DNA from: Coprothermobacterota bacterium
GTDB lineage: Bacteria; Caldisericota; JANLFM01
NCBI GenBank assembly: GCA_026389415.1
Contig: JAPLHX010000190.1
Coordinates: 1-38,673 of the forward strand
Reading direction: 5' to 3'
Length of the DNA: 38,673 nt
The stretch's first letter is position 1. Every line of letters starts with the position of its first letter. Position numbers and translations under genes: made by a program. Positions 2,302 to 30,869 of the stretch are shown here, in pieces. The notes beneath the pieces were generated by a model. It was not told the DNA's origin. It saw nothing but the letters and a program-made list of their open reading frames with translations, and did no database searches.

Positions 2302-2303
2302 GT

Positions 2304-6374: not shown

Positions 6375-6375
6375 G

Positions 6376-10565: not shown

Positions 10566-10572
10566 GTCCGTT

Positions 10573-11835
10573 TCACTGTTTTCGCAAAGCGGCTGAAAAG
10601 GCATGTCCAACCAAGCCTTCTAACTGAGCAAACCGTTCGGTCACAGGAGCTAAGATGGCCGCTCCTGCTGTCGTCATCCATTGATAGGTTACGATTTTGA
10701 TAAATGCTCCCACCCACAATCCTCCTTGCATGCGCGCGGTACGCATCGTCGGCAAAATATGATTGGAGCCTGAAGTATAGTCGCCAAACGCACGCGGTGC
10801 TTCGGCCCCGAGGAATAAGGAGCCATAATTGGTGAATTCGCGCCATGTGGAACGCCAATCCTTTGTATGCAGCTCCAAATGCTCTGGAGCGATTTCGTTG
10901 GCCAATTCTGTGGCCTCGGCGAGATTGGAAACTAGGTAGACCCATCCATTGTCTCGCCACGATCGCTGGGCAATCTCCGCCGTACTTAAATTTGGCAATT
11001 GGTGTGCCATTTCCTCTTCCACGCGTTGGATTAAGGTCGGAGACGTAGAGATCAAAATTGCTTTGGCCCGAGGATCATGTTCAGCGACTGCCCACAGATC
11101 GGCGGCGACCCAAACTGGATCGGCACTCTCATCGGCAACAATTAGCATCTCACTTGGGCCGGCAAGCATGTCAATTCCTACCTTCCCATACAGCTGACGC
11201 TTGGCTTCCGTCACATACACATTGCCTGGTCCCACAATCATATCCACAGGGGGGATGCTCTTGGTCCCATAGGCCATTGCGCCGATAGCCTGCACTCCGC
11301 CCACGCAGTAGATCTCATCGACTTCTGCAACCTGCATGGCCACCATCGAGTAGGGATTGACTTTGCCAGTGTACGGATCGGGTGGCGTACAGGCAATCAC
11401 CCGCTTAACCCCTGCGATTTTCGCTGGAATGGCACCCATCAATGCAGTCGAAGGGAGGGGATAACGCCCTCCTGGAATGTATAAACCTACTGCTGCCACT
11501 GGAATCAGCCGATGACCTACAGTCACTCCCGGTAAAATCTCCCCCTCTACTTCCACTAAGGCAGTTTTTTGTTTTTCAGCAAAAGCACGGATATTTCCAG
11601 CGGCGAATTCCAAATCCTGCTTCACTTGATCATCCACTTCTTTCCAGGCAGATTCTTTCTCTTCCACACTCACCATCGGTTGCGTTCTTTCGACTCGATC
11701 AAATTGCAACGTGTAGTCGTGAAGTGCTGGATCCCCTCGTTTTTGAACTTCCTGCAAGATCTTGCTGACAACATCTGATAGATCTGCCTGGATCTCGGGC
11801 AGGTTCTGGCCACTTTTAATGACCGTTCGGCTCAT
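10573..11835 (-). CDS. histidinol dehydrogenase (HisD) family 4-electron alcohol-to-acid dehydrogenase, paralogue outside a his operon
   Basis: 420 aa with HisD blocks: GGRYPLPSTALMGAIPAKIAGV, AGPSEMLIVADESADPVWVAADLWAVAEHD, IAPEHLELH, FGDYTSGSNHILPT and EGLVGHAFS. AAGGAG SD lies upstream of ATG 11835. Confidence 0.8.
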   Translation of the reverse strand: MSRTVIKSGQNLPEIQADLSDVVSKILQEVQKRGDPALHDYTLQFDRVERTQPMVSVEEKESAWKEVDDQVKQDLEFAAGNIRAFAEKQKTALVEVEGEILPGVTVGHRLIPVAAVGLYIPGGRYPLPSTALMGAIPAKIAGVKRVIACTPPDPYTGKVNPYSMVAMQVAEVDEIYCVGGVQAIGAMAYGTKSIPPVDMIVGPGNVYVTEAKRQLYGKVGIDMLAGPSEMLIVADESADPVWVAADLWAVAEHDPRAKAILISTSPTLIQRVEEEMAHQLPNLSTAEIAQRSWRDNGWVYLVSNLAEATELANEIAPEHLELHTKDWRSTWREFTNYGSLFLGAEAPRAFGDYTSGSNHILPTMRTARMQGGLWVGAFIKIVTYQWMTTAGAAILAPVTERFAQLEGLVGHAFSAALRKQ

Positions 11836-11944: not shown

Positions 11945-13117
11945 ATGAACTTCCAGGAAATGTTCGAGCATCATATCTTTTATATTCCAACGAAAATTCT
12001 GTTTGGTCTGGGAACAGCCAGCCGCGCGGGAGAGGTAGCAGCGAGTTATGGTGCACGAAAGGCACTACTGTTCACCGATCAAGGCTTAGTACGCGCTGGC
12101 GTTGTTGACGTTGTACTGAACAGTCTGCGACAAGCCGGTCTATCCGTGGCAGTATGGGATCGAGTGCTTGGCAATCCCACAGTCGAACTCTTTCTAGAAG
12201 CAGAGGATTTCTTAAGAGGAGCAGAAGCCGATCTTTTAATCGCAATCGGTGGAGGGAGCTCCATTGATATCGCCAAAATTGCAGGGATCCTCGATAGCAA
12301 CCCCCAACCATTGCTGACGTTGGAAGGATATGGAAAAGCTCAGAATCGCCGGCGACTGCCATTGATCGCCATCGAAACGGCAGCTGGTTCTGGAGCCGAA
12401 GTATCTGAATTTGCCATGATCCGTGATGTCCAACGTGGCCTCAAAGTTGGTGTGAATGGGCCCAACATGTTTCCAGATGTGGCTATTTGCGACCCATTGC
12501 TCACCCGATCCTTGCCACCGCGAGATACAGCAGAGATCGGCCTCGATGCCTTGAGCAATGCCATTGAATCCTACGTCACTCGCCGGGCATGGCCAGTCTC
12601 CGAAGCACTCTCACTGGAAGGAATGCGGTTGATTTTTGCCAATCTGCGGACGGCAGTCGTGTGCGGTGATAATCTGCCTGCCCGGGTGGGTATGATGGCG
12701 GGGAGTCTGTTGGCGGGGATGGCCATGGGTGTAGGTTTAGGGATTCCTCATGCATTGGCAGAATCCATTGGCGGTTTGTACGGTCAAAGTCATGGTTTGA
12801 CTGTAGCTCTCTCCCTTCCGGTTGGCCTCAAATTCTGCCTTCCAGCTTGCTTGGAAAAAATGGCACAAGTGGCGCAGGTTGCTGGAGAGAACACTGAAGG
12901 CCTTTCTGTCCAGGCGGCAGCAGAGAAAGCAATCCAAGCGATACAATTTTTAATAGCGGATCTGGCCATTCCCACCGCGCAAGAAGCTGGTTGCCAAGAG
13001 CTGGACATCCCGGTGATCTTAGAACGGGTTTTGCAACATGACTGTATCCATGAAAGCCCGCGCATTCCAACAGAATCGGATATCCGTCAGATGCTGGAGG
13101 AACTGTTTCAGTCCTAA
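11945..13117 (+). CDS. iron-containing (group III) alcohol dehydrogenase
   Basis: 390 aa with Fe-ADH blocks LIAIGGGSSIDIAKIAG, PLIAIETAAGSGAEVS, DPLLTRSLPP and GIPHALAESIGGLYGQSHG. TAAGGAG SD. Confidence 0.8.
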   Translation: MNFQEMFEHHIFYIPTKILFGLGTASRAGEVAASYGARKALLFTDQGLVRAGVVDVVLNSLRQAGLSVAVWDRVLGNPTVELFLEAEDFLRGAEADLLIAIGGGSSIDIAKIAGILDSNPQPLLTLEGYGKAQNRRRLPLIAIETAAGSGAEVSEFAMIRDVQRGLKVGVNGPNMFPDVAICDPLLTRSLPPRDTAEIGLDALSNAIESYVTRRAWPVSEALSLEGMRLIFANLRTAVVCGDNLPARVGMMAGSLLAGMAMGVGLGIPHALAESIGGLYGQSHGLTVALSLPVGLKFCLPACLEKMAQVAQVAGENTEGLSVQAAAEKAIQAIQFLIADLAIPTAQEAGCQELDIPVILERVLQHDCIHESPRIPTESDIRQMLEELFQS

Positions 13118-13139
13118 ATAAACCCAAGGAGGTATTTGT

Positions 13140-13922
13140 ATGCGCTTGCTAAACAAAGTTGCATTGATCACGGGGGCGGCACGTGGCATCGGCAAAGGTA
13201 TTGCTCTAGCGTATGCCCGGGAAGGGGCTGAGCTCTTTCTCACAGATATCTTGCCCGACACTTTGCGCCAAGCTGCCACAGAGATTCAACAGTATGCGCA
13301 AGAAAAAGTACGAACGGCAAAGATGGATGTGTCGAATAAAGTGGAAGTGAATGAAGTTGTTCAGCGCGCCATTGACGAATTCGGCCGCATCGACATTTTG
13401 GTTAACAATGCTGGTATCATTCGCATCAACTTGCTTGTGGAAAAACCAGAAGAAGAATGGGATTTGGTGCTCAATACGAATTTGAAGGGTCCTTTTTTGG
13501 TTTCCCAAGCAGTCGTACGGGAAATGCTACGGTTGGGTATCCGAGGCAAAATTGTCACCATCGCCTCCCTTAATTCGAAAGAAGGAGAGGCTTACACTTC
13601 AGACTATACTGCCTCCAAGCATGGCTTGTGGGGTTTGATGAAGAGCCTTGCGTATGAACTCGCCCCCTATCGTATAAACGTAAACTGCATTTGCCCCGGG
13701 TATGTAGACACTGACCTTCAACGAGGTTGCGAGATGCTGGAGGCAGATGCAAAGAATAAGCCCTGGCAGGAGATTCGAGACTATTATCTGGCCAAAATTC
13801 CGTTTGGTTACATGGCCACACCAGAGGAAATTGGAAAGGTCGCCGTTTTTTTGGCCTCATCCGAAGCGGATTACATGACAGGTCAAGCGGTGAATGTTTG
13901 TGGCGGCGCCATTATGCACTAG
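13140..13922 (+). CDS. short-chain dehydrogenase/reductase (classical SDR)
   Basis: 260 aa with TGAARGIGKG (cofactor motif), NNAG and YTASKHG (YxxxK). AAGGAGG SD. It is a paralogue of the SDR at 21287-22090. Confidence 0.85.
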   Translation: MRLLNKVALITGAARGIGKGIALAYAREGAELFLTDILPDTLRQAATEIQQYAQEKVRTAKMDVSNKVEVNEVVQRAIDEFGRIDILVNNAGIIRINLLVEKPEEEWDLVLNTNLKGPFLVSQAVVREMLRLGIRGKIVTIASLNSKEGEAYTSDYTASKHGLWGLMKSLAYELAPYRINVNCICPGYVDTDLQRGCEMLEADAKNKPWQEIRDYYLAKIPFGYMATPEEIGKVAVFLASSEADYMTGQAVNVCGGAIMH

Positions 13923-14910
13923 AGCGAATCGTGTCCAGAACAAGGGAGGGATCAACTACCCACGGACCCTCCTGATCCAGAACAAGAGTCCACTGTTGCT
14001 GCTGAGGTATCTCGATTTCTCTTTCCCCGTCCAATGCAATCGTTCCTTGTGAGAGGACTAAGGGAATGGATTTTTCCAGCGGCAGCAATTGCCAGCTTTG
14101 TACCTCGGCTTTTTCAATCAGGCCAGGCGCAATCGGTGCCTCCACATGCGTTCCATGGGGACCAAATAGAATGTCTAAGCCGAAAGGATCGGTCGCGCGA
14201 ACCGGATGCAAACGTGCACCAATGGAGGAAAGACCAAGACTGCATGATTCCGCGCGCGTTAGGAAGAGACGCTGAAGAGGTTTCAAGCACCAAATGGCTC
14301 GACTGGCGATGAACGATTGGGAGATGATGGCCACATCTACAAGGGCAATGTCCTTTTCTATACCATCCCTGGCAAGAACAATCCGTTTGGAGCGATGGGT
14401 CCAACGCGACTGCAGGCTGGGATTTTGAGAAAACCTGCCGCCTGCCAATCCGGCAATGGTCCCCTCGATCATGTAAGGAAATACATTATTCGTGCCGGTA
14501 GAAACAGGTAGGAGCGGCACCGAACCACAGCCCTTGGCCACTTGGCGGTTGGTACCGTCACCACCCAGCGTAATAATGCACCGAACACCAAGCTGCTTCA
14601 AGGCAAGCGCCGCTCGAAAGGAATCTTGTCCTTCAAATGACACATGCATGGAAAGAGGATGCACTTGGATCCGCAGGTAGTGTCTTTGTTGGATACTTGC
14701 CAGGGCCCTCGGTACAATCTGCTCGCGTTCCGGCAAAAACCAAACTGCTTCTATGCCTTCGGCTTCCAATCCGAGCAGGATGCGACGTACGATTCCGATC
14801 TTTTCGGTAGTACCAAACACTGTACCATAGGCCACCAGCCGCCGGATGTCCTTACCAGCAGCCGGATTAACGATGAAACCAACCTGGCCTACAGATTCAT
14901 TTCTACCTAT
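13912..14910 (-). CDS. acoX: AcoX-like ATP-NAD kinase/diacylglycerol kinase-fold protein
   Basis: GGDGT motif (IITLGGDGTNRQVAKG). The ORF track starts it at GTG 14835, but the conserved N-terminal strand VGFIVNPAAGKDIRRL is encoded in-frame upstream of that codon. I extend it to ATA 14910-14908, which lies 7 nt after GAAGGAG and overlaps the upstream stop as ATAG. The start codon is non-canonical and therefore uncertain. Confidence 0.6.
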   Translation of the reverse strand: MGRNESVGQVGFIVNPAAGKDIRRLVAYGTVFGTTEKIGIVRRILLGLEAEGIEAVWFLPEREQIVPRALASIQQRHYLRIQVHPLSMHVSFEGQDSFRAALALKQLGVRCIITLGGDGTNRQVAKGCGSVPLLPVSTGTNNVFPYMIEGTIAGLAGGRFSQNPSLQSRWTHRSKRIVLARDGIEKDIALVDVAIISQSFIASRAIWCLKPLQRLFLTRAESCSLGLSSIGARLHPVRATDPFGLDILFGPHGTHVEAPIAPGLIEKAEVQSWQLLPLEKSIPLVLSQGTIALDGEREIEIPQQQQWTLVLDQEGPWVVDPSLVLDTIRSSA

Positions 14911-15407
14911 GAATCAGCTCCTTCTGGATAGACCCGGTCAGGCTTTGGCTCAATATAACCCGGTTGTCGCTTGTAAATCTCAGCAATTAAACCTAAATCC
15001 TCTTGTGTCGAGAGATAGGTGAAGGTCTCATCGACCCAAGTTCCGCTTTGAAGTACCTGCAGCCCTTGGTTTTTAGCTAATTCCATTGTGCGGTCATAAT
15101 CCTTCACGGCAAAAGCTAGGTGATGCAGGCCTTCGCCATGCTCACGTAAGAATTCGGCATGGATGCTCCCGTCGTCCAAGGGCTGGATCAGTTCCAATTC
15201 AACTCCCCCCAGATCGGTAAGCGCAATGCGCATACGGTACGGTTGAAGTTGGTTATGCACGATCATTTTCTGAAGCTGATCCGGCCCCAGCTCATAAATA
15301 GCCCACGGTCCGATGCCATACTTATTGGTATACTGCTGCATTGAGGCTTCCAGGTTTGAAACCACCACTCCAACTTGCAGGATGCGCTGAAATAAAGGTT
15401 TGTCCAT
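14907..15407 (-). CDS. VOC (glyoxalase/bleomycin-resistance/dioxygenase fold) family protein, methylmalonyl-CoA-epimerase-like size
   Basis: 166 aa with ILQVGVVVSNLEASMQQY in the first beta-alpha-beta-beta-beta module and GEGLHHLAFAVKDYD in the second. GGGAGG SD. Confidence 0.65.
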   Translation of the reverse strand: MDKPLFQRILQVGVVVSNLEASMQQYTNKYGIGPWAIYELGPDQLQKMIVHNQLQPYRMRIALTDLGGVELELIQPLDDGSIHAEFLREHGEGLHHLAFAVKDYDRTMELAKNQGLQVLQSGTWVDETFTYLSTQEDLGLIAEIYKRQPGYIEPKPDRVYPEGADS

Positions 15408-15421
15408 AGCACCTCCCAGAT

Positions 15422-16393
15422 CTATAACAAGGAACGCATGGCTTCTGCGATTGTTAGTTCGTTTGGCAAAAACGCATCTTCCAGCACGGGACTGAACGGA
15501 ATGGGCGTGTCCGGTGCGGTCACTCGCTTGATGGGGGCATCCAGGCTGTCGAATGCCTCTTCGCCAACGGTGGCTGCAATTTCAGCGCCAAATCCATTCA
15601 TGCGAACCGCTTCGTGAACGATCACTAACCGCTTTGTCTTGCGAACTGAGCTAATGACCGTCTCCTGGTCCCAAGGTTTCAATGTTCGGAGATCAATCAC
15701 CTCCGTCGAAATTCCTTCTTGCGCTAGCTGGTTCGCAGCAGCGAGGGCTTTATGAACCATCCAACCCCATGAGACAAGGGTGATGTCGGTGCCCTCTCTT
15801 CTGATGGCCGCTTTGCCAAAAGGAACCAAGTATTCCTCCTCGGGAACTTCCCCTTTCCAACCATACAACTGGAAATGCTCAATGAAGATAATCGGGTTTC
15901 TGTTACATAGGGAACTCATCAATAAACCTTTGGCGTCGTAGGGAGTGGAAGGGAAGGCGACTTTCAGGCCGGGGATGTGTGTGAAGAAAGCTTCCAGCGA
16001 TTGAGAATGCTGAGCTGCGGCCCGGAATCCCGCTCCCTCGGGTACCCGGATCACTAGATTTAGTTCAATCTGTCCCCCAAACATGTAGTGCATCTTCGCG
16101 GCTTGATTGAGGATTTCATCCATACAAACCCCCATGAAATCCATCCACATAATCTCAATGCAGGGCCTCATGCCTGCGGCAGCCGCTCCCACAGCATGGC
16201 CGGCGATAGCCGTCTCCGTGATTGGTGTGTCTCGCACTCGTTCGGGACCGAACTCCGCAAGCAATCCTTGTGTCGCCAGAAAAGTGCCTCCAACGATCCC
16301 TACATCTTCCCCTGCTATGTAGATTCGCGGGTCGCGTCTCATTGCCTGCGCCAGCCCTTCGCTAATTGCTTTGGCATAGGTGATTGTTCGCAT
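15422..16393 (-). CDS. acoB: acetoin-dehydrogenase-type TPP-dependent E1 component, beta subunit
   Basis: ORF 15422-16468 trimmed to ATG 16393 (MRTITYAKAISEGLAQAMRRDPRIYIAGEDVG), preceded by AAGGAGAG and 13 nt after the E1-alpha stop. The GAGFRAAAQHSQSL block and C-terminal PIPFSPVLEDAFLP fit AcoB-type E1 beta. Confidence 0.75.
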   Translation of the reverse strand: MRTITYAKAISEGLAQAMRRDPRIYIAGEDVGIVGGTFLATQGLLAEFGPERVRDTPITETAIAGHAVGAAAAGMRPCIEIMWMDFMGVCMDEILNQAAKMHYMFGGQIELNLVIRVPEGAGFRAAAQHSQSLEAFFTHIPGLKVAFPSTPYDAKGLLMSSLCNRNPIIFIEHFQLYGWKGEVPEEEYLVPFGKAAIRREGTDITLVSWGWMVHKALAAANQLAQEGISTEVIDLRTLKPWDQETVISSVRKTKRLVIVHEAVRMNGFGAEIAATVGEEAFDSLDAPIKRVTAPDTPIPFSPVLEDAFLPNELTIAEAMRSLL

Positions 16394-16406
16394 AATTTCG
16401 CTCTCC

Positions 16407-17369
16407 TTATTCCGCGTATACATCCTGGTAGAGTTCATCCGGGGCCGGATCGGGGCTTTCTTCCGCAAACAGCACGGCTTGCCTCACCTCGTCTTGCCAA
16501 TTTCGATCAATAGCACGTAAGTCCTCGGTAGTAGCGATGCCACGCTCTATTAGCTGGGCCTCGAATCGAGGAATGGGGTCTTTCGCTAACCACAACTTAT
16601 GTTCCTCTTGGTCACGGTAGAGCTCTGGTTCGCCCTCAAAGTGCCCCCGGTGGCGCCAAGTATTGGCCACTAGCAAGCTGGCTCCGTTGCCGGTTCTTGC
16701 GCGCTTCACGGCCTCCCCCGCTGCTTCAAATACGGCCAGGACATCGTTTCCATCAACACTAACGCCGGGAATGCCGTATCCGGTTGCCCGTTCGGCAATG
16801 TCTTGAATGGCCATTGCCACGCGCTGGCATGAGGAAATCGCATAGTAGTTATTTTCGCAAACATAAACAACTGGAAGTTCCCAAGCAGAGGCCAAGTTCA
16901 AGGATTCATGAAAGGTTCCGCGGTTTGACGCACCGTCCCCAAAAAAGCAAACAGAAATAGCTCCTTCCCCTTTCAATTTGCAGGCTAAACCGGCTCCTGT
17001 GGCAATAGGGAGGCTGGCGCCAACAATGCCGTTAGCGCCCAAGATACCAATGGAAACGTCTGCGATATGCATCGAACCCCCCTTCCCCTTGCAGTATCCA
17101 GTTCGCTTGGCAAAAAGTTCAGCCATCATCCGATTGAGATTTCCTCCTTTGGCGATCAGATGGCCGTGACCACGATGCGTGCTGGCGATGTAATCAGAGG
17201 CGGACAAATGGGCGCAGACACCAGTAGCGATCGCCTCCTCCCCGGCATAGAGATGCACGAATCCAGGTATTAGAGAAGAAGCAAACAACTCCGCCGCTTC
17301 CATTTCAAAGGTCCGAATCTTCACCATTGTGCTGTAGAGACCCAGCAGCAGATCGCGATCCAACTCCAT
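16407..17369 (-). CDS. acoA: acetoin-dehydrogenase-type TPP-dependent E1 component, alpha subunit
   Basis: 320 aa with STHRGHGHLIAKG and GKGGSMHIAD, which I recognise as AcoA-type blocks. The TPP motif is FFGDGASNRG...YVCENNYYAIS. Confidence 0.75.
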   Translation of the reverse strand: MELDRDLLLGLYSTMVKIRTFEMEAAELFASSLIPGFVHLYAGEEAIATGVCAHLSASDYIASTHRGHGHLIAKGGNLNRMMAELFAKRTGYCKGKGGSMHIADVSIGILGANGIVGASLPIATGAGLACKLKGEGAISVCFFGDGASNRGTFHESLNLASAWELPVVYVCENNYYAISSCQRVAMAIQDIAERATGYGIPGVSVDGNDVLAVFEAAGEAVKRARTGNGASLLVANTWRHRGHFEGEPELYRDQEEHKLWLAKDPIPRFEAQLIERGIATTEDLRAIDRNWQDEVRQAVLFAEESPDPAPDELYQDVYAE

Positions 17370-17430
17370 TTAGCCAACCCCTTTCTGCATCATGAGCAAC
17401 TCAGATGGCTCAGCCATTCTCACCATGTAA

Positions 17431-18600
17431 TTATGGCTCCTCGGTCGATTCCAACAACTGACACAGTTTCTCTAAAAAGCGCGCGGCGGTGATTCCATCA
17501 ATCGCACGATGATCGTAAGTAAGCGAAAGCCAAACTTGGGGAAGAATCTGGAGGCTGTTATCAGCCGCGACTTGAACGCCCTTATGCAATCGTCCCACGC
17601 CCAAAATGGCAACTTCAGGAAAATGGAGTATGGGAGTGAAAGCATCGGTTCGAGAAATCCCAACGTTACTAATAGTAAAGGTGGAGCCCTGAAGTTGTTC
17701 TCGCGTCAGCGTGCGATTTCGGGCTGCATTTGCCAGGAAGGCCATTTCTTCAGATATCTCTGTTAAATTTTTCCCATCAGCTTTGCGAATCACGGGGACA
17801 ACCAAACCCGTTTCTGTGTCCATAGCAATACCGATGTTGATGTGAGGGAAGCGCTGCAAAGTCTTGCCATCAAAATGAGCGTTCAAACGCGGGAATTCCA
17901 GCAAAGTCCGGGATGCCATTTTGACCAAGACTGCCGTCAACGATACTTGTCGTTGCTCCTTCCAGCGTAATGCATTTGGGCAAGCGCTGAGGGTCATTTG
18001 CGTCACAAATACGGCGCTGTGAAAACCCTTGCTCAATTCTCGAGCAATGATCTGGCGGGTGGGTGAAAGCGTCTCATATTGTACTTCATCGCTGTCAGAA
18101 GCTCGAGCGGGCTGAGTCTGTGAACGATAGTACTCGATGTCCTTTTCGGTAATTCGTCCGCCCGGTCCGGTGCCAGTCACTTCCGCCAAATTGATTCCAA
18201 GCTCCCTGGCTAAATGCTTGGCCGCAGGTGAAGCCTTGATATCACTTATGGGAATCCCGTTGTTGCCTGCGCCCCGCTTTGGTTGATCAAGTATGCTAAC
18301 AGTAGTAGAACGCGTGATGGTCGAGAGCGTTTCATCTTGGGGAAGATCGGCCGCCAGTTCTTCCGCATTCTCTGCAATTAGAGCGATGACAGTCCCCACA
18401 GGATATTCCTCATTTTTAATCGCAAAGATTCTTTTGATGAATCCATCAATGGGGGCTTCGATGTCGTTGGTGATTTTTTCTGACTCCACTTCCAAGAGCA
18501 GCTCCCCTTTTGCGATCTGTTCGCCTTCACTTTTGTACCAGTGACCAACGAAACCGGATTGCATGGTCATACCAAATTTTGGCATTCGGAGCTTATACAT
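17431..18600 (-). CDS. acoC: dihydrolipoamide acyltransferase (E2) with lipoyl, subunit-binding and catalytic domains
   Basis: 389 aa. It has a lipoyl domain (LLEVESEKITNDIEAP), a peripheral-subunit-binding domain (ASPAAKHLARELGINLAEVTGTGPGGRITEKDI) and the catalytic motif LSLTYDHRAIDG. Confidence 0.8.
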   Translation of the reverse strand: MYKLRMPKFGMTMQSGFVGHWYKSEGEQIAKGELLLEVESEKITNDIEAPIDGFIKRIFAIKNEEYPVGTVIALIAENAEELAADLPQDETLSTITRSTTVSILDQPKRGAGNNGIPISDIKASPAAKHLARELGINLAEVTGTGPGGRITEKDIEYYRSQTQPARASDSDEVQYETLSPTRQIIARELSKGFHSAVFVTQMTLSACPNALRWKEQRQVSLTAVLVKMASRTLLEFPRLNAHFDGKTLQRFPHINIGIAMDTETGLVVPVIRKADGKNLTEISEEMAFLANAARNRTLTREQLQGSTFTISNVGISRTDAFTPILHFPEVAILGVGRLHKGVQVAADNSLQILPQVWLSLTYDHRAIDGITAARFLEKLCQLLESTEEP

Positions 18601-18606
18601 TCTTCC

Positions 18607-19650
18607 CTAGCTGCCTTTCGCCCCTTGTTCGATTAACCGGCCGTCTGTGCTCGTCTGCTTAAGAATGCGCAGTCTCTCTCGATAGAGGATGTTGGCGCGC
18701 AAACTCGTTTTCACTGAGTCGAGGATAATCGCAAATAGGATGAGACTGCCTTTGATCACATTCACCAGATAAACGTTGACGGCAAGAAGGGTTAACGAGT
18801 TATCGAAAAGGCTAAGTAGCAATGTACCGCCGAGCATACCAAAGACTGTACCTCTGCCACCGGTGAGACTCACTCCACCCAGAATTGGCCCGGCAATCGC
18901 CATCAGGTTCAATCCAGTCCCCATTCCATTGGTGATCGATCCCTGGCGGCCTGCAGCCAACAAACCCGCCAAGGCTGCTAGAAATCCAGCGATCGAGAAG
19001 GCGATCACTACGATCCGGTTCACTCGAACGCCCGCAATATAACTCGCTCGGGGGTTGCCCCCCGTTGCCACTGCAAATCGGCCAAAGCGAGTTTGCGCCA
19101 TGATGAAAGCAAATACGATATAAGCGCCTATCAGAATCAGGACAGCTACAGGGATACTGCCGAAGATACGAGCGCTTCCGGCGTAGGTGAATGCAGGACT
19201 GAGGTTTACCAAGGCAAACGGCAACAGAAAATATACTAATCCGCGAAGAACAATATTGGCTGAGAGCGTTTCGAGGAAAGCATTCATGCGTAGGCGTGTA
19301 ATAAGAAGCCCATTAAGGAATCCAACTAGAACACCAATCAGCAATGCGATAAGAATCTGTGCAACGGCACCAATCCCAGGAAACAACATTCGGCAAAGGA
19401 GAACCGAGATGCCCGGGGCAAATGCCAGTGTGGCCTCCAAGGATAAATCTAGATGACCAACAATCAGGACGATCCCTTCCGCGAGAACCAGAAGGCCGAG
19501 CGTAGAAACGTGATAGAAAATGTTAACGATGTTTTGGAAAGTGAAGAAATTGGGAACAATGAATGCATTTACGACAAAGAGTAGTAGGAACAGTACCCAG
19601 ATTAAATTGTCAAGGAGTAATAATTGCAGCTTAGTGCGAGTATTGGTCAC
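18607..19650 (-). CDS. CUT2-type (RbsC/AraH-like) carbohydrate ABC transporter permease
   Basis: 347 aa and highly hydrophobic, with about 9-10 predicted TM segments and typical blocks such as TGGNPRASYIAGVRV. GTG start lies 3 nt after the ATPase stop. Confidence 0.8.
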   Translation of the reverse strand: MTNTRTKLQLLLLDNLIWVLFLLLFVVNAFIVPNFFTFQNIVNIFYHVSTLGLLVLAEGIVLIVGHLDLSLEATLAFAPGISVLLCRMLFPGIGAVAQILIALLIGVLVGFLNGLLITRLRMNAFLETLSANIVLRGLVYFLLPFALVNLSPAFTYAGSARIFGSIPVAVLILIGAYIVFAFIMAQTRFGRFAVATGGNPRASYIAGVRVNRIVVIAFSIAGFLAALAGLLAAGRQGSITNGMGTGLNLMAIAGPILGGVSLTGGRGTVFGMLGGTLLLSLFDNSLTLLAVNVYLVNVIKGSLILFAIILDSVKTSLRANILYRERLRILKQTSTDGRLIEQGAKGS

Positions 19651-19653
19651 GGA

Positions 19654-21207
19654 TCAACCCTTTCCCACAGTCTGGTCTATGACATTGGAGACCAAACCTT
19701 GTACAGAGCGGTAGATTTCGAGTTCATTGAACTCAGATCGCTGGAAATTACGAATTGCTTTTCCTTCAAACAGCACAATGATTCGATCGCAAACGATGAG
19801 AAGGTCGTCAATCCCCGGCGAAGTGATGACCACGCCGGCATTTAAGGCCAGCTTCTCTTTGATGGATTTTAGGATGCTTTCCTTGGCTGCGATGTCTATC
19901 CCCTTGGTTGGTTCATCGAGCAGGAAAACTTTTGCTTGAGTGGAGGCTACCCTACCACAGAGGACCTTTTGTCGGTTGCCACCACTGAGATTTTGCACTT
20001 CCTCTTCGGTGGAGCTGGTTAGGATCCCGAAGTCTCGTATTAGATTTTGCACCAGAGTTCGCTCTCGAGTATTTTGCATTAGGAAGTGCCGGGCAATGCT
20101 TACAAGAAAAGACAGTGAGAGATTCTTGCGCACGCTTAGGACATTGATTACGCCTTCATCATCCCGATCTTCTGTTAAGTAGACAATCCCTTCGTCCAAA
20201 GCGTCCCAGCTCTTTGAAAAACGCTTTTTTTCTTTTCCCTCGATTTGAATGAACCCTTTCTGTGTAACATCAATACCCGCAATAGCCTTGAGGATTTCGG
20301 TTCGACCGCTTCCAACCAGCCCGGCCAAACCTAGGATTTCCCCTCGGTGCACCTCAAAATGAATATCCTCAAACGATCCTTCCCGGGTGAACTCTTCCAC
20401 GTTTAAAACGGGGATCTGGTCAAAAAAAGGGCTTTGAGCCGCTTCTTGAGTGGTTTGTGCTGGTGTGCAGTAGGATTCCCCGACTATCATTGAGCAAAGT
20501 TGATCCTTGTCGGCAGAGGACCGCTCAACAGTTTCTACTACTTTAGCATCACGAATTACTGTAACCTGGTCACAAATTTCTAGGATCTCATCCATTCGGT
20601 GGGAAATGAAGATGATAGATTTGCCCAGCGACTTCTGCTCCCTTACGAGTTGATAGAAGTAATCCTGTTCCCGCTGAGAAAAAGAGGTTGTGACCTCGTC
20701 CAGAATGACGATATCGGTATTTTCCAGGAAAAATGCTTTCAGTGCAAGGAAGATTTGCTGCTCACTTAGGGTAAGATCCCGCATCTTACGGCCTATATCA
20801 ATGTGAAAACCCGCTTGATTGAAAATTCGCTGCGTATGATCTTGCATTTGCTTCCATTTGAGAAAACCTAGGCGATTTTGTTCAAAAGCCGGGAGAAACA
20901 AATTTTGAACGAGGCTGAAATCGGGAATCGTCTCTGGTTTTTGTGTGCAGATCGCAATGCCTGCTTGTTTCGCACGCAAGGGCGTCAGGTGGCTATATTC
21001 TTTGCCTTTGATGATAATCTGACCGGTTGACGGAGGGATGATACCGGAGAGAATCGTGACCAACGTGCTTTTACCGGCTCCGTTTTTACCAATAATCCCG
21101 TGGACCTTCCCACGTTGAAATTGAATATTGGCATTTTCCAATGCCACAGTACCTGGATAAATCTTGGTCAGAGAGCGAACCTCTAAGATAGTTTCAGCGT
21201 CAGGCAT
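19654..21207 (-). CDS. CUT2-type carbohydrate ABC transporter ATP-binding protein (tandem ATPase domains, RbsA/MglA-like)
   Basis: 517 aa with Walker A GKNGAGKST, signature LSEQQ and Walker B ILDEVT in domain 1. Domain 2 is degenerate (GLVGSGRTE, LSGGNRQK, LLDEPTKGID). GAAGGAAACT SD. Confidence 0.85.
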   Translation of the reverse strand: MPDAETILEVRSLTKIYPGTVALENANIQFQRGKVHGIIGKNGAGKSTLVTILSGIIPPSTGQIIIKGKEYSHLTPLRAKQAGIAICTQKPETIPDFSLVQNLFLPAFEQNRLGFLKWKQMQDHTQRIFNQAGFHIDIGRKMRDLTLSEQQIFLALKAFFLENTDIVILDEVTTSFSQREQDYFYQLVREQKSLGKSIIFISHRMDEILEICDQVTVIRDAKVVETVERSSADKDQLCSMIVGESYCTPAQTTQEAAQSPFFDQIPVLNVEEFTREGSFEDIHFEVHRGEILGLAGLVGSGRTEILKAIAGIDVTQKGFIQIEGKEKKRFSKSWDALDEGIVYLTEDRDDEGVINVLSVRKNLSLSFLVSIARHFLMQNTRERTLVQNLIRDFGILTSSTEEEVQNLSGGNRQKVLCGRVASTQAKVFLLDEPTKGIDIAAKESILKSIKEKLALNAGVVITSPGIDDLLIVCDRIIVLFEGKAIRNFQRSEFNELEIYRSVQGLVSNVIDQTVGKG

Positions 21208-21229
21208 AGTTTCCTTCTATTTATCAGGA

Positions 21230-21275
21230 TGAAAAAAGAAGTGCTTGTTGGCAAATTCCTTCACCAACAAGCACT
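21230..21275 (-). terminator. intrinsic terminator/attenuator hairpin inside the operon, after the SBP and SDR genes
   Basis: Minus-strand reading, starting 11 nt after the SDR stop: AGTGCTTGTTGG-tgaaggaatttg-CCAACAAGCACT-TCTTTTTTC. That is a perfect 12-bp stem (21264-21275 pairs with 21240-21251), a 12-nt loop and a U-rich tail. It lies about 25 nt upstream of the ATPase RBS. Confidence 0.7.
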
Positions 21276-21286
21276 ATTGACAATCT

Positions 21287-22090
21287 TTAGGACATCACCG
21301 TGCCGCCGCACACGTTAATCCCCTGCCCCGTTATGTAGCCTGAATCTTCAGAAGCGAGAAACAGGGCAAGCCTGGCAACATCTTCCGGTTGAGCAAACCG
21401 ACGGAAAGGTACCATGGACTCATATCCCTCCCGGATGACCGTAGGGTCCTTACCTTCTTTGGCTGCCAGCTCCAGCTCAAGATCTCGCTCCATATCCGTA
21501 TCGACAAAACCGGGACAAATCGCATTGACGTTGATCCCATAGGGAGCCATTTCGTATGCTAGGCAACGAGTAAATCCGAGGACTCCATGTTTCGAGGCTG
21601 TGTAAGCTGATGTGGCAGCTTCACCAATTCTGGCCATGATTGAGGCTAAATTAATGATTCGCCCCTTTGTCTGCAAGCGGATCATCTCTCGAATAACAGC
21701 CTTGGCGCAAAGAAAAACTCCTTTGAGGTTGACATCCAGAATGTAGTCCCATTCCTCTTCGGACAGTTCGATAACCCGGTTTCCCTTGCACACACCAGCG
21801 TTATTCACCAGGATATCGATGGTGCCCATTTCTTTGACGGCTCTCTGCACTGCGGCTTCTACATCTGCCCAATGGCGAACGTCCACGCTTTGCATGAATA
21901 TACTGCCGGTAGCACCGACTTGCTGGATTTCTTTGGTAGTCTTCGCCAAAAGCTCTTCATTGACATCCACTAGAAAAAGGTGAGCTCCTGCTTGAGCAAA
22001 TCGGTTGGCAATGGCTTTTCCGATACCTCGAGCAGCGCCCGTGATGAACGCCGTTTTATTAAAAAGTTGAAGAGAGTCAATCGAGCTCAT
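21287..22090 (-). CDS. short-chain dehydrogenase/reductase (classical SDR), between the SBP and ATPase genes of the ABC operon
   Basis: 267 aa with TGAARGIGKA, NNAG and YTASKHG. By eye, roughly half of its positions are identical to the SDR at 13140-13922. Confidence 0.85.
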   Translation of the reverse strand: MSSIDSLQLFNKTAFITGAARGIGKAIANRFAQAGAHLFLVDVNEELLAKTTKEIQQVGATGSIFMQSVDVRHWADVEAAVQRAVKEMGTIDILVNNAGVCKGNRVIELSEEEWDYILDVNLKGVFLCAKAVIREMIRLQTKGRIINLASIMARIGEAATSAYTASKHGVLGFTRCLAYEMAPYGINVNAICPGFVDTDMERDLELELAAKEGKDPTVIREGYESMVPFRRFAQPEDVARLALFLASEDSGYITGQGINVCGGTVMS

Positions 22091-22102
22091 TGCTGGAGCA
22101 CG

Positions 22103-23236
22103 TTATGGGGAGACGGCAACGACATTTTCATACAAACGAGGGTCGGTGGGGGAAACCTCTTGAGGGCAAAATGCTGACAACAGCTTGATGTCCAACCCCT
22201 CGGCGCCCGCGGTGTTATTGACGACTTCTGCCGGTGACCAGATCGCTCCTTCTTCAACAATCGTGTCTCCCTCTTTGGGCGTGGGTTGATTAGTGAGGAT
22301 CTTGTAAAGCAACTCCACAGCCATTTCTCCCTCGGCAAGGCAGGGTTGTTCTGTCATGCAGAAGAATTCATCGTTCTGCAGTAGCACCAGACCTTCGGGG
22401 CCGATGCAAATTCCGGCGGTTACGAATTTCTTGGGGTCCAAACCGGCTTGTTTAATCGCGCTCACAGCACCAGTTCCCATTACGTCCGGTGTCTGCACAA
22501 AGATACCTACAACCTGGTCACCAAAGCGGGTGAGGTAGTCAGCAACACCGCGGAATGTATCATCGTTGTTCCAGTTGCCGTTGCATTGTACGACATTCAG
22601 TTTGTCTTTGTACTGATCGATGATGGAGTGAAAGGCCTTGGTTTCGATTCCGGCCCAAGACTCTGGAATCAGATCACCCAGTACTTCGATGACAACACCG
22701 GTCGGCATTTCCCCACCGTTCCTTTTCTTGATCTCATTTAAGAACAAGTTGGTCAAACGGATGGTTGTATCAGCGATATCGAGGTTAATGTGGTACGCCA
22801 CCTTGCCACCAGTGGGGGAGTTGTCGGTGGCAACTACCGGTATGCCGGCATCATTCAGTTTCTTAATGCCGGGAATGATCGCGACAGGATCCCATGAGCT
22901 ACCGTTGATATATCCATCGATACCCATCGTTATCAGGTTGTCAATATTTGTCAGCTCGCGTTGGGAATCATTGTCAGCCGAGAGAACTGTCAGTTTAATA
23001 CCGAGTTCCTTGGCCTTTTTTTCTGCTCCAATCTGAATGGCTTTTACAAACGGAGCAGTTAAATCGCGTACATTTAGACCAAAGTGGTATTCCTTCGGTG
23101 GTGGCGTAGTTGACGTAGGGGTTGTCTGGGTTGCGGTGGGGGAGGAAGTCTGAGGAGCCGAGCAACTGAAAATGAGAAGAGTACAAACGAGGAAAACTGT
23201 GCCAATGCTAAAACTCCGAGCTAGCTTACAAATCAT
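22103..23236 (-). CDS. periplasmic-binding-protein type I (RbsB-like) sugar/polyol-binding lipoprotein
   Basis: 377 aa. The signal peptide has a lipobox-like LLIFSC followed by a Thr/Pro-rich linker (SSPTATQTTPTSTTPPP). The remainder is a PBP-I fold with blocks such as LTVLSADNDSQRELTNIDNLITMGIDG and AGIPVVATD. AAAGGAGG SD. Confidence 0.8.
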   Translation of the reverse strand: MICKLARSFSIGTVFLVCTLLIFSCSAPQTSSPTATQTTPTSTTPPPKEYHFGLNVRDLTAPFVKAIQIGAEKKAKELGIKLTVLSADNDSQRELTNIDNLITMGIDGYINGSSWDPVAIIPGIKKLNDAGIPVVATDNSPTGGKVAYHINLDIADTTIRLTNLFLNEIKKRNGGEMPTGVVIEVLGDLIPESWAGIETKAFHSIIDQYKDKLNVVQCNGNWNNDDTFRGVADYLTRFGDQVVGIFVQTPDVMGTGAVSAIKQAGLDPKKFVTAGICIGPEGLVLLQNDEFFCMTEQPCLAEGEMAVELLYKILTNQPTPKEGDTIVEEGAIWSPAEVVNNTAGAEGLDIKLLSAFCPQEVSPTDPRLYENVVAVSP

Positions 23237-23266
23237 TTACGAACCTCCTTTGATTGATTGGATAGT

Positions 23267-23306
23267 ATTATGGAAACAACCTCAAGACCTTGTCAATAAT
23301 GTCAAT
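23267..23306 (-). promoter_or_regulatory. sigma-70-like promoter with tandem ATTGACA direct repeat upstream of the SBP gene
   Basis: Minus-strand reading: ATTGACA-TT-ATTGACA (23306-23291), then 18 nt, then CATAAT (23272-23267). This ends about 30 nt before ATG 23236. The proximal TTGACA is a perfect -35 hexamer. Confidence 0.4.
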
Positions 23307-23322: not shown

Positions 23323-23811
23323 CTAAATTTTCGGGTGGCTTTCCTTGGCTGCTGGTTTGAGTGTTTTCTGCACCGCACGCACAATCGACGTATACCCGGT
23401 ACAACGGCAAAGATTGCCGCGCAGATACTGACGAATCTCCTCTTCACTGGGGTTGGGATTTTCGTCCAGCAAGGCTTTGGCTGAAACCAACATCCCCGGC
23501 GTACAGAAGCCGCACTGTACCGCGCCCTCTTCCAGGAAAGCTTGCTGCAAAGGGTGAAGGTTCCGATAATCTCCCAGACCCTCTACCGTAGTGATTTCCG
23601 ACCTATCTGCCAAAACGGCTAAAGTCAGGCAGCTCAGTACGGCTTTCCCATTCATGATGATCGTACAGGCGCCACACTCGCCAATGCCACAGCCATATTT
23701 GGCTCCTGTCAGATCCAGGCGTTCACGCAGCACGTTCAGCAGCAAGTCGTTGTCCTCTACTTCAAGTTGGTGTGGTTGTCCATTGACCGTCAGACGAATT
23801 GTTCGGCTCAT
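23323..23811 (-). CDS. molybdenum hydroxylase set 2, [2Fe-2S] small subunit (CoxS/XdhC-FeS type)
   Basis: ORF trimmed to ATG 23811 (MSRTIRLTVNGQPHQLEV), which overlaps the FAD-subunit stop as ATGA. Motifs CGIGECGACT, QCGFCTPG and CRCTGY are present. Confidence 0.85.
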   Translation of the reverse strand: MSRTIRLTVNGQPHQLEVEDNDLLLNVLRERLDLTGAKYGCGIGECGACTIIMNGKAVLSCLTLAVLADRSEITTVEGLGDYRNLHPLQQAFLEEGAVQCGFCTPGMLVSAKALLDENPNPSEEEIRQYLRGNLCRCTGYTSIVRAVQKTLKPAAKESHPKI

Positions 23812-24698
23812 AGAACACCTCCTGCCCGAATCCAGGCTGCCTGCAAGACCTCCTCCAGTATCACCTGACATACCTGGCGACGGTATTTGGCTGTGGAGCG
23901 AATGTCATCAATGGGAACAATGGCCTTCGCTCCCGCCTCTGCAGCCTGTCGAAGCAAGTTAGAGTCAACGACTGCCCCTTCCAGTAATTGCTCTACCTGC
24001 AAGATGCGAACCGGAGTGGGCGCAACCGAACCAACGGCCGCTCGGCAGAGGATGCAAACGGTTCCTCGGCGTTGGAGGTAAGTCGCCGCATTGACCTTGG
24101 CAATGTCACAGGAGACCCGGCCCAACTTCAAGAAAGCAGAACCGGAATCAGGAAGGGGCGCTGGGAGACAGATTTCGGTTAACAATTCACCGGGCGCAAG
24201 ACAAGAAGATCCCGGTCCCAGAAAGAATTGTGTCAAGCGTACCAGGCGTTCCTGACCCGATTTCTGCAGGCGCAATTGGGCATCGAAGGCCAGCAGGGGT
24301 GGGGCCGTGTCAGCCGCAGGAGAGGCATTGCATAGATTCCCCCCGAGGGTAGCCATATTGCGAATGGCCGGCGCCGCCATGGACCGAAGGGCTTCATATA
24401 AGGCAGAGTATTCTCGCTGGATGGCAGGGTAGTGCTCTGCTTCAGATAGGGTTACGGTGGCACCCAAGCGGAGTCCTTGCTCATTGGTTTGGATCTGCTG
24501 TAGTTCCGGCACTCGCTGAAGCCCGATCAGGATTTCTGGTTGAACCATTTGCCGCTTGATTTTTATCAACAAGTCGGTGCCCCCTGCTAGGATGGCGACT
24601 TGATCCCCAGACTGAGAGCAGAGGTTTAGGGCGTCAGTCAAATTGGAGGGCTCTAGGCAGCGGAACCGAAACGGGAGGATTTTGCTGTCCACCGGCAT
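23808..24698 (-). CDS. molybdenum hydroxylase set 2, FAD-binding medium subunit (CoxM/XdhB type)
   Basis: 296 aa with ILAGGTDLL and ATLGGNLCNASPAADTAPPLLA (FAD_binding_5) plus a CO-dehydrogenase flavoprotein C-terminal-like end (DDIRSTAKYRRQV). The start overlaps the upstream stop as TAATG. Confidence 0.85.
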   Translation of the reverse strand: MPVDSKILPFRFRCLEPSNLTDALNLCSQSGDQVAILAGGTDLLIKIKRQMVQPEILIGLQRVPELQQIQTNEQGLRLGATVTLSEAEHYPAIQREYSALYEALRSMAAPAIRNMATLGGNLCNASPAADTAPPLLAFDAQLRLQKSGQERLVRLTQFFLGPGSSCLAPGELLTEICLPAPLPDSGSAFLKLGRVSCDIAKVNAATYLQRRGTVCILCRAAVGSVAPTPVRILQVEQLLEGAVVDSNLLRQAAEAGAKAIVPIDDIRSTAKYRRQVCQVILEEVLQAAWIRAGGVL

Positions 24699-29331: not shown

Positions 29332-29332
29332 G

Positions 29333-29908: not shown

Positions 29909-29917
29909 TGCTCCTCC

Positions 29918-30766: not shown

Positions 30767-30794
30767 TCGAATATCCCTCCTTTCCAATGGTGCG

Positions 30795-30823
30795 ATTATA
30801 TGTCAACAAATTTGAAATATAAA
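30795..30823 (-). promoter_or_regulatory. candidate promoter of the twin Mo-hydroxylase operon
   Basis: Minus-strand reading: TTTATA (30823-30818), a 17-nt spacer, then a perfect TATAAT (30800-30795), about 30 nt upstream of the TTG start. The -35 element is weak. Confidence 0.35.
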
Positions 30824-30834
30824 TAAAGCACTGC

Positions 30835-30863: not shown

Positions 30864-30869
30864 AACATC

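Follow-up and report, generated by a model that had tools for sequence, protein, structure and literature searches.

An acetoin-dehydrogenase-type E1/E2 gene set linked to a CUT2-class ABC importer in a Coprothermobacterota contig and its uncultured relatives

This study concerns a nine-gene minus-strand cluster (13912-23236) on contig JAPLHX010000190.1 of the Coprothermobacterota bacterium assembly GCA_026389415.1; the whole stretch analysed, 38,673 nucleotides long, is called the window below. In this cluster genes for an E1/E2 complex of the acetoin dehydrogenase (Aco) type are tied to a dedicated ATP-binding cassette (ABC) importer and a short-chain dehydrogenase/reductase (SDR). The same association was found in several uncultured anaerobic lineages, where a pocket signature of the substrate-binding protein (SBP) tracks the linkage. 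Our preferred interpretation, held with about equal belief and doubt, is that the genes form a single operon for the import and cleavage of a small vicinal diol or alpha-hydroxyketone resembling 2,3-butanediol or acetoin.

Operon organization

Families were assigned to the window's open reading frames (ORFs) with Pfam and NCBIfam models, and all nine frames of the operon are intact and co-directional. In the order of transcription the first gene encodes the SBP (22103-23236), which has a lipoprotein-like N-terminus, a Ser/Thr/Pro-rich linker and a type I/CUT2-class fold (Peripla_BP_4, E = 9e-31). It is followed by a classical SDR (SDR1, 21287-22090; adh_short, E = 3e-65), for which we propose a role as diol or polyol 2-dehydrogenase, by a fused tandem ABC ATPase of the AraG/RbsA class with two ABC_tran domains (19654-21207) and by a permease that Pfam and NCBIfam place in the AraH/RbsC class (18607-19650; BPD_transp_2). 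The E2 gene (17431-18600) specifies Biotin_lipoyl, E3_binding (E3/E1-binding) and 2-oxoacid_dh acyltransferase domains. Next come the Aco-type E1 subunits, namely the thiamine pyrophosphate (TPP)-binding E1 alpha (16407-17369; E1_dh, E = 3e-86) and E1 beta (15422-16393; Transket_pyr and Transketolase_C), then a VOC protein (14907-15407; Glyoxalase_4), which is a distant relative of methylmalonyl-CoA epimerase, and an AcoX-like protein with an NAD_kinase N-terminal domain and an NAD-kinase fold (13912-14910; probable ATA start).

The first-pass annotation had described nine head-to-tail minus-strand genes, and our ORF calls reproduced its intergenic gaps exactly (12, 79, 3, 6, 61, 13 and 14 nt from the SBP to the AcoX-like gene), with Pfam and NCBIfam agreeing on every family. 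Beginning with the ATPase gene, neighbouring genes are separated by 3, 6, 13 and 14 nt, apart from the 61 nt between E2 and E1 alpha; such short distances argue for co-transcription of these genes, as far as sequence can tell. The end given earlier, 23306, lies 70 nt past the SBP start codon, and the additional stretch covers a promoter-like site, TTGACA-18-CATAAT (23267-23296, minus strand), upstream of the SBP gene. This site agrees with the consensus at 11 of 12 positions and is a consensus match only. In L001, a relative with 91% identity, the second TTGACA is retained along with the CATAAT and the AAAGGAGG ribosome-binding site.

Between the SDR1 and ATPase genes lies a terminator-like hairpin of 16 bp followed by a U-run (21240-21275, minus strand; -24 kcal/mol, z = -4.9), so that the hairpin behind the terminator noted earlier after the SDR gene (21275-21240) is real. 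L001 retains it, with C-G replaced by U-A in a compensatory change, and at the corresponding position after its SDR gene the locus L085 has a perfect hairpin unrelated to it. Because of this conservation and replacement we regard the hairpin as a functional element. Most plausibly it would act as a partial terminator or stabiliser, giving an excess of SBP and SDR over the membrane and aco components.

No E3 (lipoamide dehydrogenase) or other Pyr_redox gene was detected by domain search in the window's ORFs of at least 150 aa, as had been claimed before, and the same search found no Sigma54_activat domain (AcoR). An Rfam scan of the whole window revealed neither a riboswitch nor another RNA family. 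A shared intergenic operator motif, TTGTCAATA, looked promising at first and was rejected, as its 7 matches compare with 7.6 expected by chance.

The E1 subunits

An Aco-type assignment of the E1 subunits, rather than one to pyruvate dehydrogenase (PDH) or branched-chain 2-oxoacid dehydrogenase (BCKDH), is supported at the sequence level because tree, motifs and NCBIfam cut-off agree. In a neighbour-joining tree of 14 E1 alpha sequences (200 bootstraps) the window protein fell into a clade of 100% bootstrap together with those of the Mycetohabitans and Burkholderia acoXABC operons, Enterococcus, Thermanaeromonas toyohensis and Anaeroselena. Clustering with PDH or BCKDH was not seen; Rhodococcus pdhA, Staphylococcus aureus pdhA and Rhizobium etli bkdA1 all lie outside this clade. 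With the PDH equivalog TIGR03182 (PDH_E1_alph_y) E1 alpha scored 364.5 bits, below the cut-off of 393.85, and with TIGR03181 249.3 bits, below 411.35. The opposite tendency is seen in E1 beta, which passes the PDH E1 beta model PRK09212 (387 vs 321 bits), a model of 'subfamily' rank, and in the best solved relative of E1 alpha, which is human PDH E1 alpha.

Identities follow the tree. E1 alpha is 48-52% identical to the Aco references overall, these being orthologues by operon context and hidden Markov model and not experimentally characterised proteins. Among them are the acoR-acoX-E1 alpha-(beta)-AcoC-lipA locus of Mycetohabitans pBRH01 (50.6%; from annotated plasmids), in which the E2 takes its name from the AcoC equivalog model, and the acoR-acoX-acoA-acoB locus of Burkholderia RPE67 (48%). 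Values were 40% for Rhodococcus pdhA, 31% for S. aureus pdhA and 30% for R. etli bkdA1; E1 beta is 53% identical to Burkholderia AcoB. The closest cultured relatives of E1 alpha reach 62-68%. They include Sporomusa proteins annotated as acetoin:DCPIP oxidoreductase as well as T. toyohensis and Anaeroselena agilis, in which E1 alpha-beta and AcoX are located behind a sigma54 AcoR-type activator. To their counterparts in the Thermanaeromonas sigma54-E1ab-AcoX-E2 operon, E1 alpha and E1 beta are 68% and 73% identical, respectively.

The motifs STHRGHGH, GGSMHIAD and GAGFRAAAQHSQSL, on which the earlier recognition of AcoA/AcoB had relied, were all found in the E1 translations, and E1 alpha also contains GHFEG and the TPP motif GDG...NN. 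THRGHGH is common to E1 alpha of the window, Mycetohabitans and Burkholderia RPE67, and AAAQHSQ to E1 beta of the window and Burkholderia; GGSMHIAD and GHFEG likewise recur in the canonical aco references. In the alignment the S. aureus pdh and R. etli bkd subunits are devoid of THRGHGH, GGSMHIAD, GHFEG and AAAQHSQ. The pdh subunits of Rhodococcus still have the GGSMH and AAQHS cores, and THRGHGH and GHFEG are missing from all three pdhA/bkdA1 references. Between aco-linked and canonical E1s the one variable site compared, the residue following NN in the TPP motif, showed no consistent pattern.

Conservation of the aco-importer linkage

Relatives of the SBP were gathered from GTDB genomes and JGI/ENA metagenomes (160 loci, 37-65% identity), and all window proteins were searched against these loci by tblastn. 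The SBP family is small and nearly all uncultured, with 54 clusters at 39-85% identity; a search of the SBP against plasmids gave no match and hence no annotated cultured example there. Across the 160 loci, aco genes adjoin the SBP gene only in the closest subclade. The aco-linked loci represent four lineages with four gene orders (the window with L001 and L179; L085 with L180; L086; L167), at identities of 55-65% for the SBP and 62-69% for E1 alpha.

L001 has the order of the window minus AcoX. In L085/L180, SBP-SDR-ATPase-permease-LplA-E2 is accompanied by a convergent E1 alpha-E1 beta-VOC group, with the lipoate-protein ligase gene standing between permease and E2. L086 carries E1 beta-VOC-AcoX-SBP-SDR, and in L167 an HTH-cupin gene precedes the divergent E2-E1 alpha-E1 beta-AcoX-SBP-SDR-ATPase-permease. 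No E3 was called in L001, L167, L179 or L180. Synteny of SBP-SDR-ABC and aco genes is thus kept in related contigs of four lineages despite rearrangement, which is the pattern that would be expected of a selected functional linkage.

The loci L006, L007 and L094 (SBP identity 50-53%) have HTH-cupin, an iron-containing alcohol dehydrogenase (Fe-ADH), HisD, SBP, SDR, ATPase, permease and a further Fe-ADH, and contain no aco genes. Since the SDR following the SBP in these aco-free loci is 77-78% identical to SDR2, a second SDR encoded convergently to the operon in the window, the aco module and the SDR1-type gene look like an addition to an older cluster. The window appears to keep the rest of that cluster (SDR2, Fe-ADH, HisD-like) just downstream.

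E2, AcoX and the VOC protein

The E2 translation contains the lipoyl-lysine context ESEKIT and the catalytic motif DHRAIDG. The NCBIfam AcoC equivalog NF011457 matches only its residues 3-162 (lipoyl/E3-binding; 94.5 vs 307 bits), so that the protein is assigned by its domains to the classical 2-oxoacid_dh type and not to the proteobacterial alpha/beta-hydrolase type. Its identity to the E2s of the other aco-linked loci reaches only 37-42%.

The AcoX-like protein is a true relative of the canonical acoXABC AcoX, as previously supposed: it is 55% identical to AcoX of T. toyohensis and 34-38% to annotated Burkholderia and Mycetohabitans AcoX. A sequence search of the PDB with it gave no match. 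Its frame is open from TGA 14916-14914, and the first in-frame ATG, GTG or TTG is GTG 14835, a start that would remove the conserved AcoX N-terminus GFIVNPAAGKDIRR. ATA 14910 is preceded by GAAGGAG at 7-nt spacing and overlaps VOC by 4 nt. The same ATA is found in L179, a 99% relative from an independent sample, where the stretch upstream of the GTG differs by just two substitutions, both silent in the AcoX frame. We therefore place the start at ATA 14910 as probable, with low certainty; the final 4-nt overlap of the first-pass annotation stands with this codon, whereas the canonical start would be GTG 14835. At its 3' end AcoX overlaps the convergent SDR2 gene by 11 nt. The gene is missing from L001, where the convergent SDR comes 95 nt after VOC, and AcoX is therefore dispensable in the lineage of the window and L001.

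With the methylmalonyl-CoA epimerase model TIGR03081 the VOC protein scored 51.8 bits, below the cut-off of 114.95, and its best PDB match, 3GM5, has no known function. Its family comprises about 430 clusters, mostly uncultured or from metagenome-assembled genomes (MAGs); plasmids yielded only relatives of 31-35% identity labelled 'VOC family protein'. VOC follows E1 beta in the window, L001, L179, L085/L180 and L086, that is, in three lineages. Speculatively, it may invert the stereochemistry at the carbon beside the carbonyl, in a hydroxyketone or an acyl-CoA. A Syntrophorhabdales MAG (L184, 954-5399, and L185) carries an E1 beta-SDR-VOC-E2 array whose VOC is 53% identical to that of the window. 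There the array continues with enoyl-CoA hydratase, EthD, an SDR and a branched-chain-amino-acid-type (HAAT) ABC importer, so that the same SDR, VOC and E1/E2 module is joined to a different importer class.

Specificity of the importer and SDR1

The best NCBIfam match of the ATPase is AraG (378 bits, sub-cut-off), and all NCBIfam sugar-transporter models score far under their cut-offs on the window importer. The AlphaFold model of the SBP (pLDDT 90.9) matches ribose-binding proteins best in the PDB (TM 0.81 on target), a search that gave a fold and no suggestion of a ligand. For pocket mapping we used Escherichia coli RbsB, whose sequence was checked to be identical to 2DRI and which aligns at about 23-26% identity; its ribose ligands we take to be D89, R90, R141, F164, N190, D215 and Q235. 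The equivalents of D89, F164 (as W) and Q235 are invariant across the SBP family. At the other positions the family has N/T/S for R90, C/S/E for R141 and, in nearly all members, C for D215; the window SBP has N, E and C, respectively.

Where RbsB has R90, A137 and R141, all five aco-linked SBPs carry N-W-[E/S], and none of the roughly 140 other family members analysed combines these three residues. Most of the latter have T-F-C; the non-aco locus L121 has T-W-E. The aco-linked subclade would thus have its own specificity signature, as judged from the alignment. A conserved C-terminal extension of about 55 residues (about 325-377; window 22103-22265) has no counterpart in RbsB. It includes an invariant W333-S-P-A and L368-x-E-N and is confidently modelled as additional beta strands.

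Taken together, 'sugar importer' is a fold label and carries no functional inference, and the imported compound is probably not a classical sugar, because the family is devoid of the ribose-binding arginines and its usual partner is HisD-like and not a sugar enzyme. Of the earlier sugar-type designation, the CUT2 fold and the three-part architecture hold, but the pocket without the RbsB arginines and D215 and the HisD-like partners speak against it.

SDR1 reached 228.6 bits with the acetoin reductase model TIGR02415 (cut-off 304.35) and 211.5 bits with the BudC model NF052558 (cut-off 270), and FabG-type and 3-hydroxybutyrate-dehydrogenase models score slightly above both. Such sub-cut-off scores do not exclude butanediol dehydrogenase or acetoin reductase activity. 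In every aco-linked locus the SBP gene is followed by a gene of the SDR1 type (53-62% identity).

SBP-family partners and flanking genes

Clustering of neighbouring genes gave HisD-like > ATPase > permease > SBP as the usual operon of the SBP family. HisD-like proteins are partners at 83 loci, zinc-dependent alcohol dehydrogenases (Zn-ADH) at 60, SDRs at 47 and the AcnX large subunit at 21; a second HisD is frequent, and HisC-like, HutU, HutI, formimidoyltransferase and cyclodeaminase genes occur at about 5-11 loci each. A pair resembling 2-oxoacid:ferredoxin oxidoreductase (IOR-like) occurs at 6-8 loci. The family seems adapted to small alcohols, amino-alcohols or polyols that may carry an imidazole group. 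The HisD/hut/HisC/AcnX/IOR operons may mark an uptake and catabolic route for histidinol or another imidazole alcohol or polyol. This candidate route would reach urocanate without HutH, whose motif was found in only 1 of 185 loci.

Convergent to the operon, the plus-strand Fe-ADH and SDR2 genes (11945-13922) encode candidate aldehyde or ketone handlers, a role assigned by association; the pair occupies the same position in L001 and L179. Downstream of it follow a HisD-like gene (10573-11835; TIGR00069, 496 bits), Ldh_2, an alpha/beta-hydrolase, a CN-hydrolase, a LarA-like racemase, a gene resembling imidazoleglycerol-phosphate dehydratase (IGPD-like, 4772-5437; 92 bits vs HisB cut-offs of 189-443) and an IorA/IorB-like pair (1693-4175), homologues of which adjoin other SBP-family members. 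The IGPD-like paralogue recurs beside SBP-family members in L167 (2177-2842), L075 and L062, which suggests a diverged dehydratase for a related, perhaps non-phosphorylated, polyol. The LarA-like and Ldh_2 genes lie at 6358-7638 and 9438-10610. The former narrowly misses the malate-racemase (LarAH6) cut-off (459 vs 500 bits), and the best match of the latter is L-sulfolactate dehydrogenase (238 vs 500 bits). With the HisD-like gene, these two point to a route in this island from a primary alcohol via 2-hydroxyacid and 2-oxoacid to acyl-CoA (via IOR). A role in the degradation of dihydroxypropanesulfonate or another sulfonate was also considered, as the HpsN-like HisD, SDR, Zn-ADH and Ldh_2 resemble hps/slc genes. 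It was set aside: no sulfonate-specific gene occurs among the approximately 45 commonest conserved-neighbour clusters, and the Ldh_2 score far below the sulfolactate dehydrogenase cut-off also weighs against it.

Directly upstream of the SBP gene are two minus-strand molybdenum hydroxylase/aldehyde-oxidoreductase sets (23323-30787), arranged as FAD, 2Fe-2S and Mo subunits and then Mo, FAD and 2Fe-2S (xanthine-dehydrogenase family). Their genes score below every NCBIfam equivalog cut-off and could encode aldehyde oxidoreductases or N-heterocycle hydroxylases. Beyond these sets lie a divergent plus-strand HTH-cupin (XRE-cupin) regulator (30870-31424), a minus-strand tungsten-type aldehyde oxidoreductase (AOR) and a putrescine-type aminotransferase. 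By association, the Mo sets, the regulator and the AOR (together 23323-33299) are candidates for aldehyde oxidation and regulation. Mo-enzyme genes also precede the SBP in L001, and homologues (52-54%) are found near SBP relatives in L109, L112 and L118; an AOR (64%) precedes the SBP in L089, and HTH-cupin is divergent from the aco-SBP operon in L167. Since Mo-enzyme and AOR genes recur beside SBP-family members, predicted aldehyde-consuming enzymes are consistently at hand beside the cluster.

Discussion

The catalytic steps, the coupling of transport to cleavage and the substrate are what we infer from this gene set, the steps being drawn from established acetoin dehydrogenase chemistry. The lipid-anchored SBP and the CUT2-class ABC transporter would import the compound, and SDR1 would oxidise a secondary alcohol to the alpha-hydroxyketone. 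E1-bound TPP would then attack the carbonyl and split the bond between carbonyl and carbinol carbons, freeing the carbinol half as an aldehyde, while the acyl half would be reductively loaded onto the lipoyl arm of E2 and handed by E2 to CoA. The reduced lipoyl group would be re-oxidised in trans by an E3 or equivalent encoded elsewhere. VOC would probably interconvert stereoisomers of the hydroxyketone or acyl-CoA, AcoX would be a non-essential accessory, and the flanking Fe-ADH/SDR2, AOR and Mo enzymes would reduce or oxidise the aldehyde. The hairpin after the SDR gene would allow SBP and SDR to exceed the downstream products. The likeliest substrate pair would be 2,3-butanediol/acetoin or a close analogue, yielding acetyl-CoA and acetaldehyde.

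2,3-Butanediol/acetoin is thus the leading candidate substrate, though unproven. A substrate of this kind is favoured by the identity of 68-73% between the E1 subunits and their counterparts in ordinary aco operons, by the presence of AcoX and by the resemblance of SDR1 to butanediol dehydrogenase, albeit sub-cut-off; the Fe-ADH and AOR available for acetaldehyde count in the same direction. Several points weigh against it. SDR1 stays under both the acetoin-reductase and the BudC cut-offs, and the SBP-family partners (HisD-like, Zn-ADH, AcnX, hut and IOR) do not fit butanediol, while HisD-like, IGPD-like and IOR-like genes also lie near the operon in the window. To our knowledge, a small membrane-permeant diol would be an unusual substrate for an ABC importer, and VOC is not part of the described aco operons. 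There is no E3 in the window, and a strong terminator-like hairpin separates the SBP-SDR pair from the remaining operon.

In a possible, though less probable, alternative the same architecture serves a larger polyol-type import, such as an alditol or ketose, a 1-deoxy-ketose or a heteroaryl compound (e.g. imidazole glycerol-like). Here the Aco-type E1 would perform an oxidative, transketolase-like ketol cleavage to glycolyl-, acetyl- or another acyl-CoA and a longer aldehyde, which AOR and the Mo enzymes would oxidise. The sugar-binding-protein fold of the importer fits this scheme, as do the ties of the SBP family to HisD-like, IGPD-like, HisC-like, hut and IOR genes, several of them in the window, the two Mo hydroxylase sets and the AOR that flank the operon, and the conserved VOC, which suggests a chiral intermediate. 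Related aco-type complexes, moreover, stand beside sugar ABC/kinase or glucitol phosphotransferase system (PTS) genes in Rhizobiaceae. However, E1 alpha and beta are as close as 68-73% to ordinary acoR/acoX operons of anaerobes, and we know of only acetoin-like substrates for the enzyme class. The pocket of the aco-linked SBPs differs from the HisD- and hut-linked ones, so that the ligand may differ too, and the operon has no kinase, isomerase or aldolase for a sugar-derived aldehyde. We consider a butanediol/acetoin-like substrate more likely than a non-acetoin one.

It is rather unlikely that transport and cleavage are not coupled at all, with the aco module inserted downstream of an older SBP-SDR-ABC cluster, the transporter feeding HisD-like/Fe-ADH/SDR2 and the complex degrading acetoin that is formed or taken up independently. 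Such a history is suggested by L006, L007 and L094, in which HisD-SBP-SDR-ABC-FeADH occurs without aco genes, by the strong hairpin within the operon and by the diverse origin of the E2s (37-42% identity). Nevertheless, the linkage was kept through four rearrangements at 55-65% SBP identity, the pocket signature co-varies with it, and the gaps of 3-14 nt among permease, E2, E1 and VOC leave little space for separate promoters. Least probable by far is a 2-oxoacid (pyruvate-type) dehydrogenase acting on the product of the HisD-like, Ldh_2 and LarA-like enzymes. The nearby 2-hydroxyacid enzymes, the PRK09212 result for E1 beta (387 vs 321 bits) and human PDH E1 alpha as the best solved relative would agree with it. 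The E1 alpha score below the PDH equivalog cut-off, its grouping with aco operons at 100% bootstrap apart from pdhA/bkdA1, the aco-clade motifs and the AcoX gene in the operon do not, and the island already has genes for an IOR-like 2-oxoacid:ferredoxin oxidoreductase.

If butanediol or acetoin is the ligand, no earlier system for binding-protein-dependent uptake of these fermentation products would be known to us. If it is a polyol or heteroaryl-polyol, lipoamide-dependent C-C cleavage would gain a new substrate class, which would help to explain 'aco-like' clusters beside sugar transporters. For Aco-type E1/E2 we know of a single physiological substrate, acetoin, with methylacetoin as an analogue. 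We tentatively raise the possibility that the lipoamide-linked system is an 'oxidative ketol-cleaving' one, and not an acetoin enzyme, for a ketose, deoxy-ketose or heteroaryl-glycerol-like hydroxyketone; if so, it would form with the Rhizobiaceae clusters an unrecognised class of hydroxyketone dehydrogenase complexes beyond acetoin. The soluble SBP offers a direct experimental handle on the substrate.

Aco-type complexes beside sugar uptake genes have a precedent. The first-pass annotation supposed that aco operons are not joined to a carbohydrate importer, which does not hold for plasmids of Rhizobiaceae: in Agrobacterium pAtCFBP7129b, Sinorhizobium americanum plasmid A and Rhizobium sp. L51/94 an E1ab/E2 complex with an E1 alpha of the same clade (about 51% identity) lies directly beside carbohydrate uptake genes and an oxidoreductase. 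The uptake genes are a CUT1 ABC system with a PfkB/sugar kinase in Agrobacterium and Sinorhizobium and a glucitol PTS in Rhizobium. These clusters have a SorC-type regulator, two of the three, those of Agrobacterium and Sinorhizobium, have LpdA, one of them also LipA, and, unlike the window, they have no VOC, AcoX or CUT2 SBP. The three plasmid loci (L169, L176 and L177) represent a recurrent 'aco-like plus sugar uptake' module, in which E1ab-E2 comes after a 441-aa 'NAD(P)H-dependent oxidoreductase' and the SorC-type regulator. In Clostridioides difficile (L178) an aco-type complex is found behind a SorC-type sugar-binding regulator. We know of no characterisation of the Rhizobiaceae and C. 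difficile clusters.

CUT2 importers such as RbsABC and AraFGH have the same three parts as the window system, a Peripla_BP_4 SBP, a fused double ATPase and a BPD_transp_2 permease. The family described here differs in the absence of the R90, R141 and D215 residues, in the C-terminal extension of about 55 residues and in its genomic partners, which are HisD-like and other non-sugar enzymes. PDH and branched-chain complexes share the E1 alpha-beta/E2 architecture and the TPP and lipoyl chemistry with the window complex, but they form separate clades (29-40% E1 alpha identity to the three pdhA/bkdA1 references) and differ in the motifs of the active-site region. Methylmalonyl-CoA epimerase and other VOC enzymes have the Glyoxalase_4 fold in common with the window VOC, which is below the epimerase cut-off.

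The closest known system is the acetoin dehydrogenase enzyme system AcoA/AcoB/AcoC (with AcoL, AcoX and AcoR) of Cupriavidus necator, Pelobacter carbinolicus, Clostridium magnum and Bacillus subtilis, represented in our comparison by the acoR-acoX-acoABC loci of Mycetohabitans pBRH01 and Burkholderia RPE67. Among the loci inspected, no E3 lies near the aco genes in strict-anaerobe relatives of the window's E1 clade, and an E3 gene is also missing from acoXABC-type operons (Burkholderia type). In T. toyohensis (LT838272.1; L002, 14149-20960) sigma54-E1ab-AcoX-E2 is followed by CMD, DUF6506, a GcvH-like lipoyl carrier, ferredoxin, an HdrB-like CCG protein, a 930-aa HdrA/FlpD-like protein and LplA; an E3 is missing. 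L004 and L182 likewise have DUF6506 after their aco genes, and L182 also has CMD there. This Hdr-type set may re-oxidise dihydrolipoyl groups without E3 in strict anaerobes.

Common to the window and the acetoin dehydrogenase system are the E1 alpha/beta clade, the motifs, the lipoyl-E2 and an AcoX relative. In place of a sigma54 AcoR, the window has an XRE-cupin regulator nearby. Its E2 gene comes first in order and encodes the classical type, in contrast to the alpha/beta-hydrolase-type proteobacterial AcoC, and its AcoX, with the probable ATA start, is lost in a close relative. Above all, the window module sits in an ABC-importer operon with an SDR and VOC. By its predicted proteins the complex thus belongs to the acetoin dehydrogenase E1/E2 family, from whose described members it differs in regulation, gene order, the missing E3, the VOC protein and its integration with an importer.

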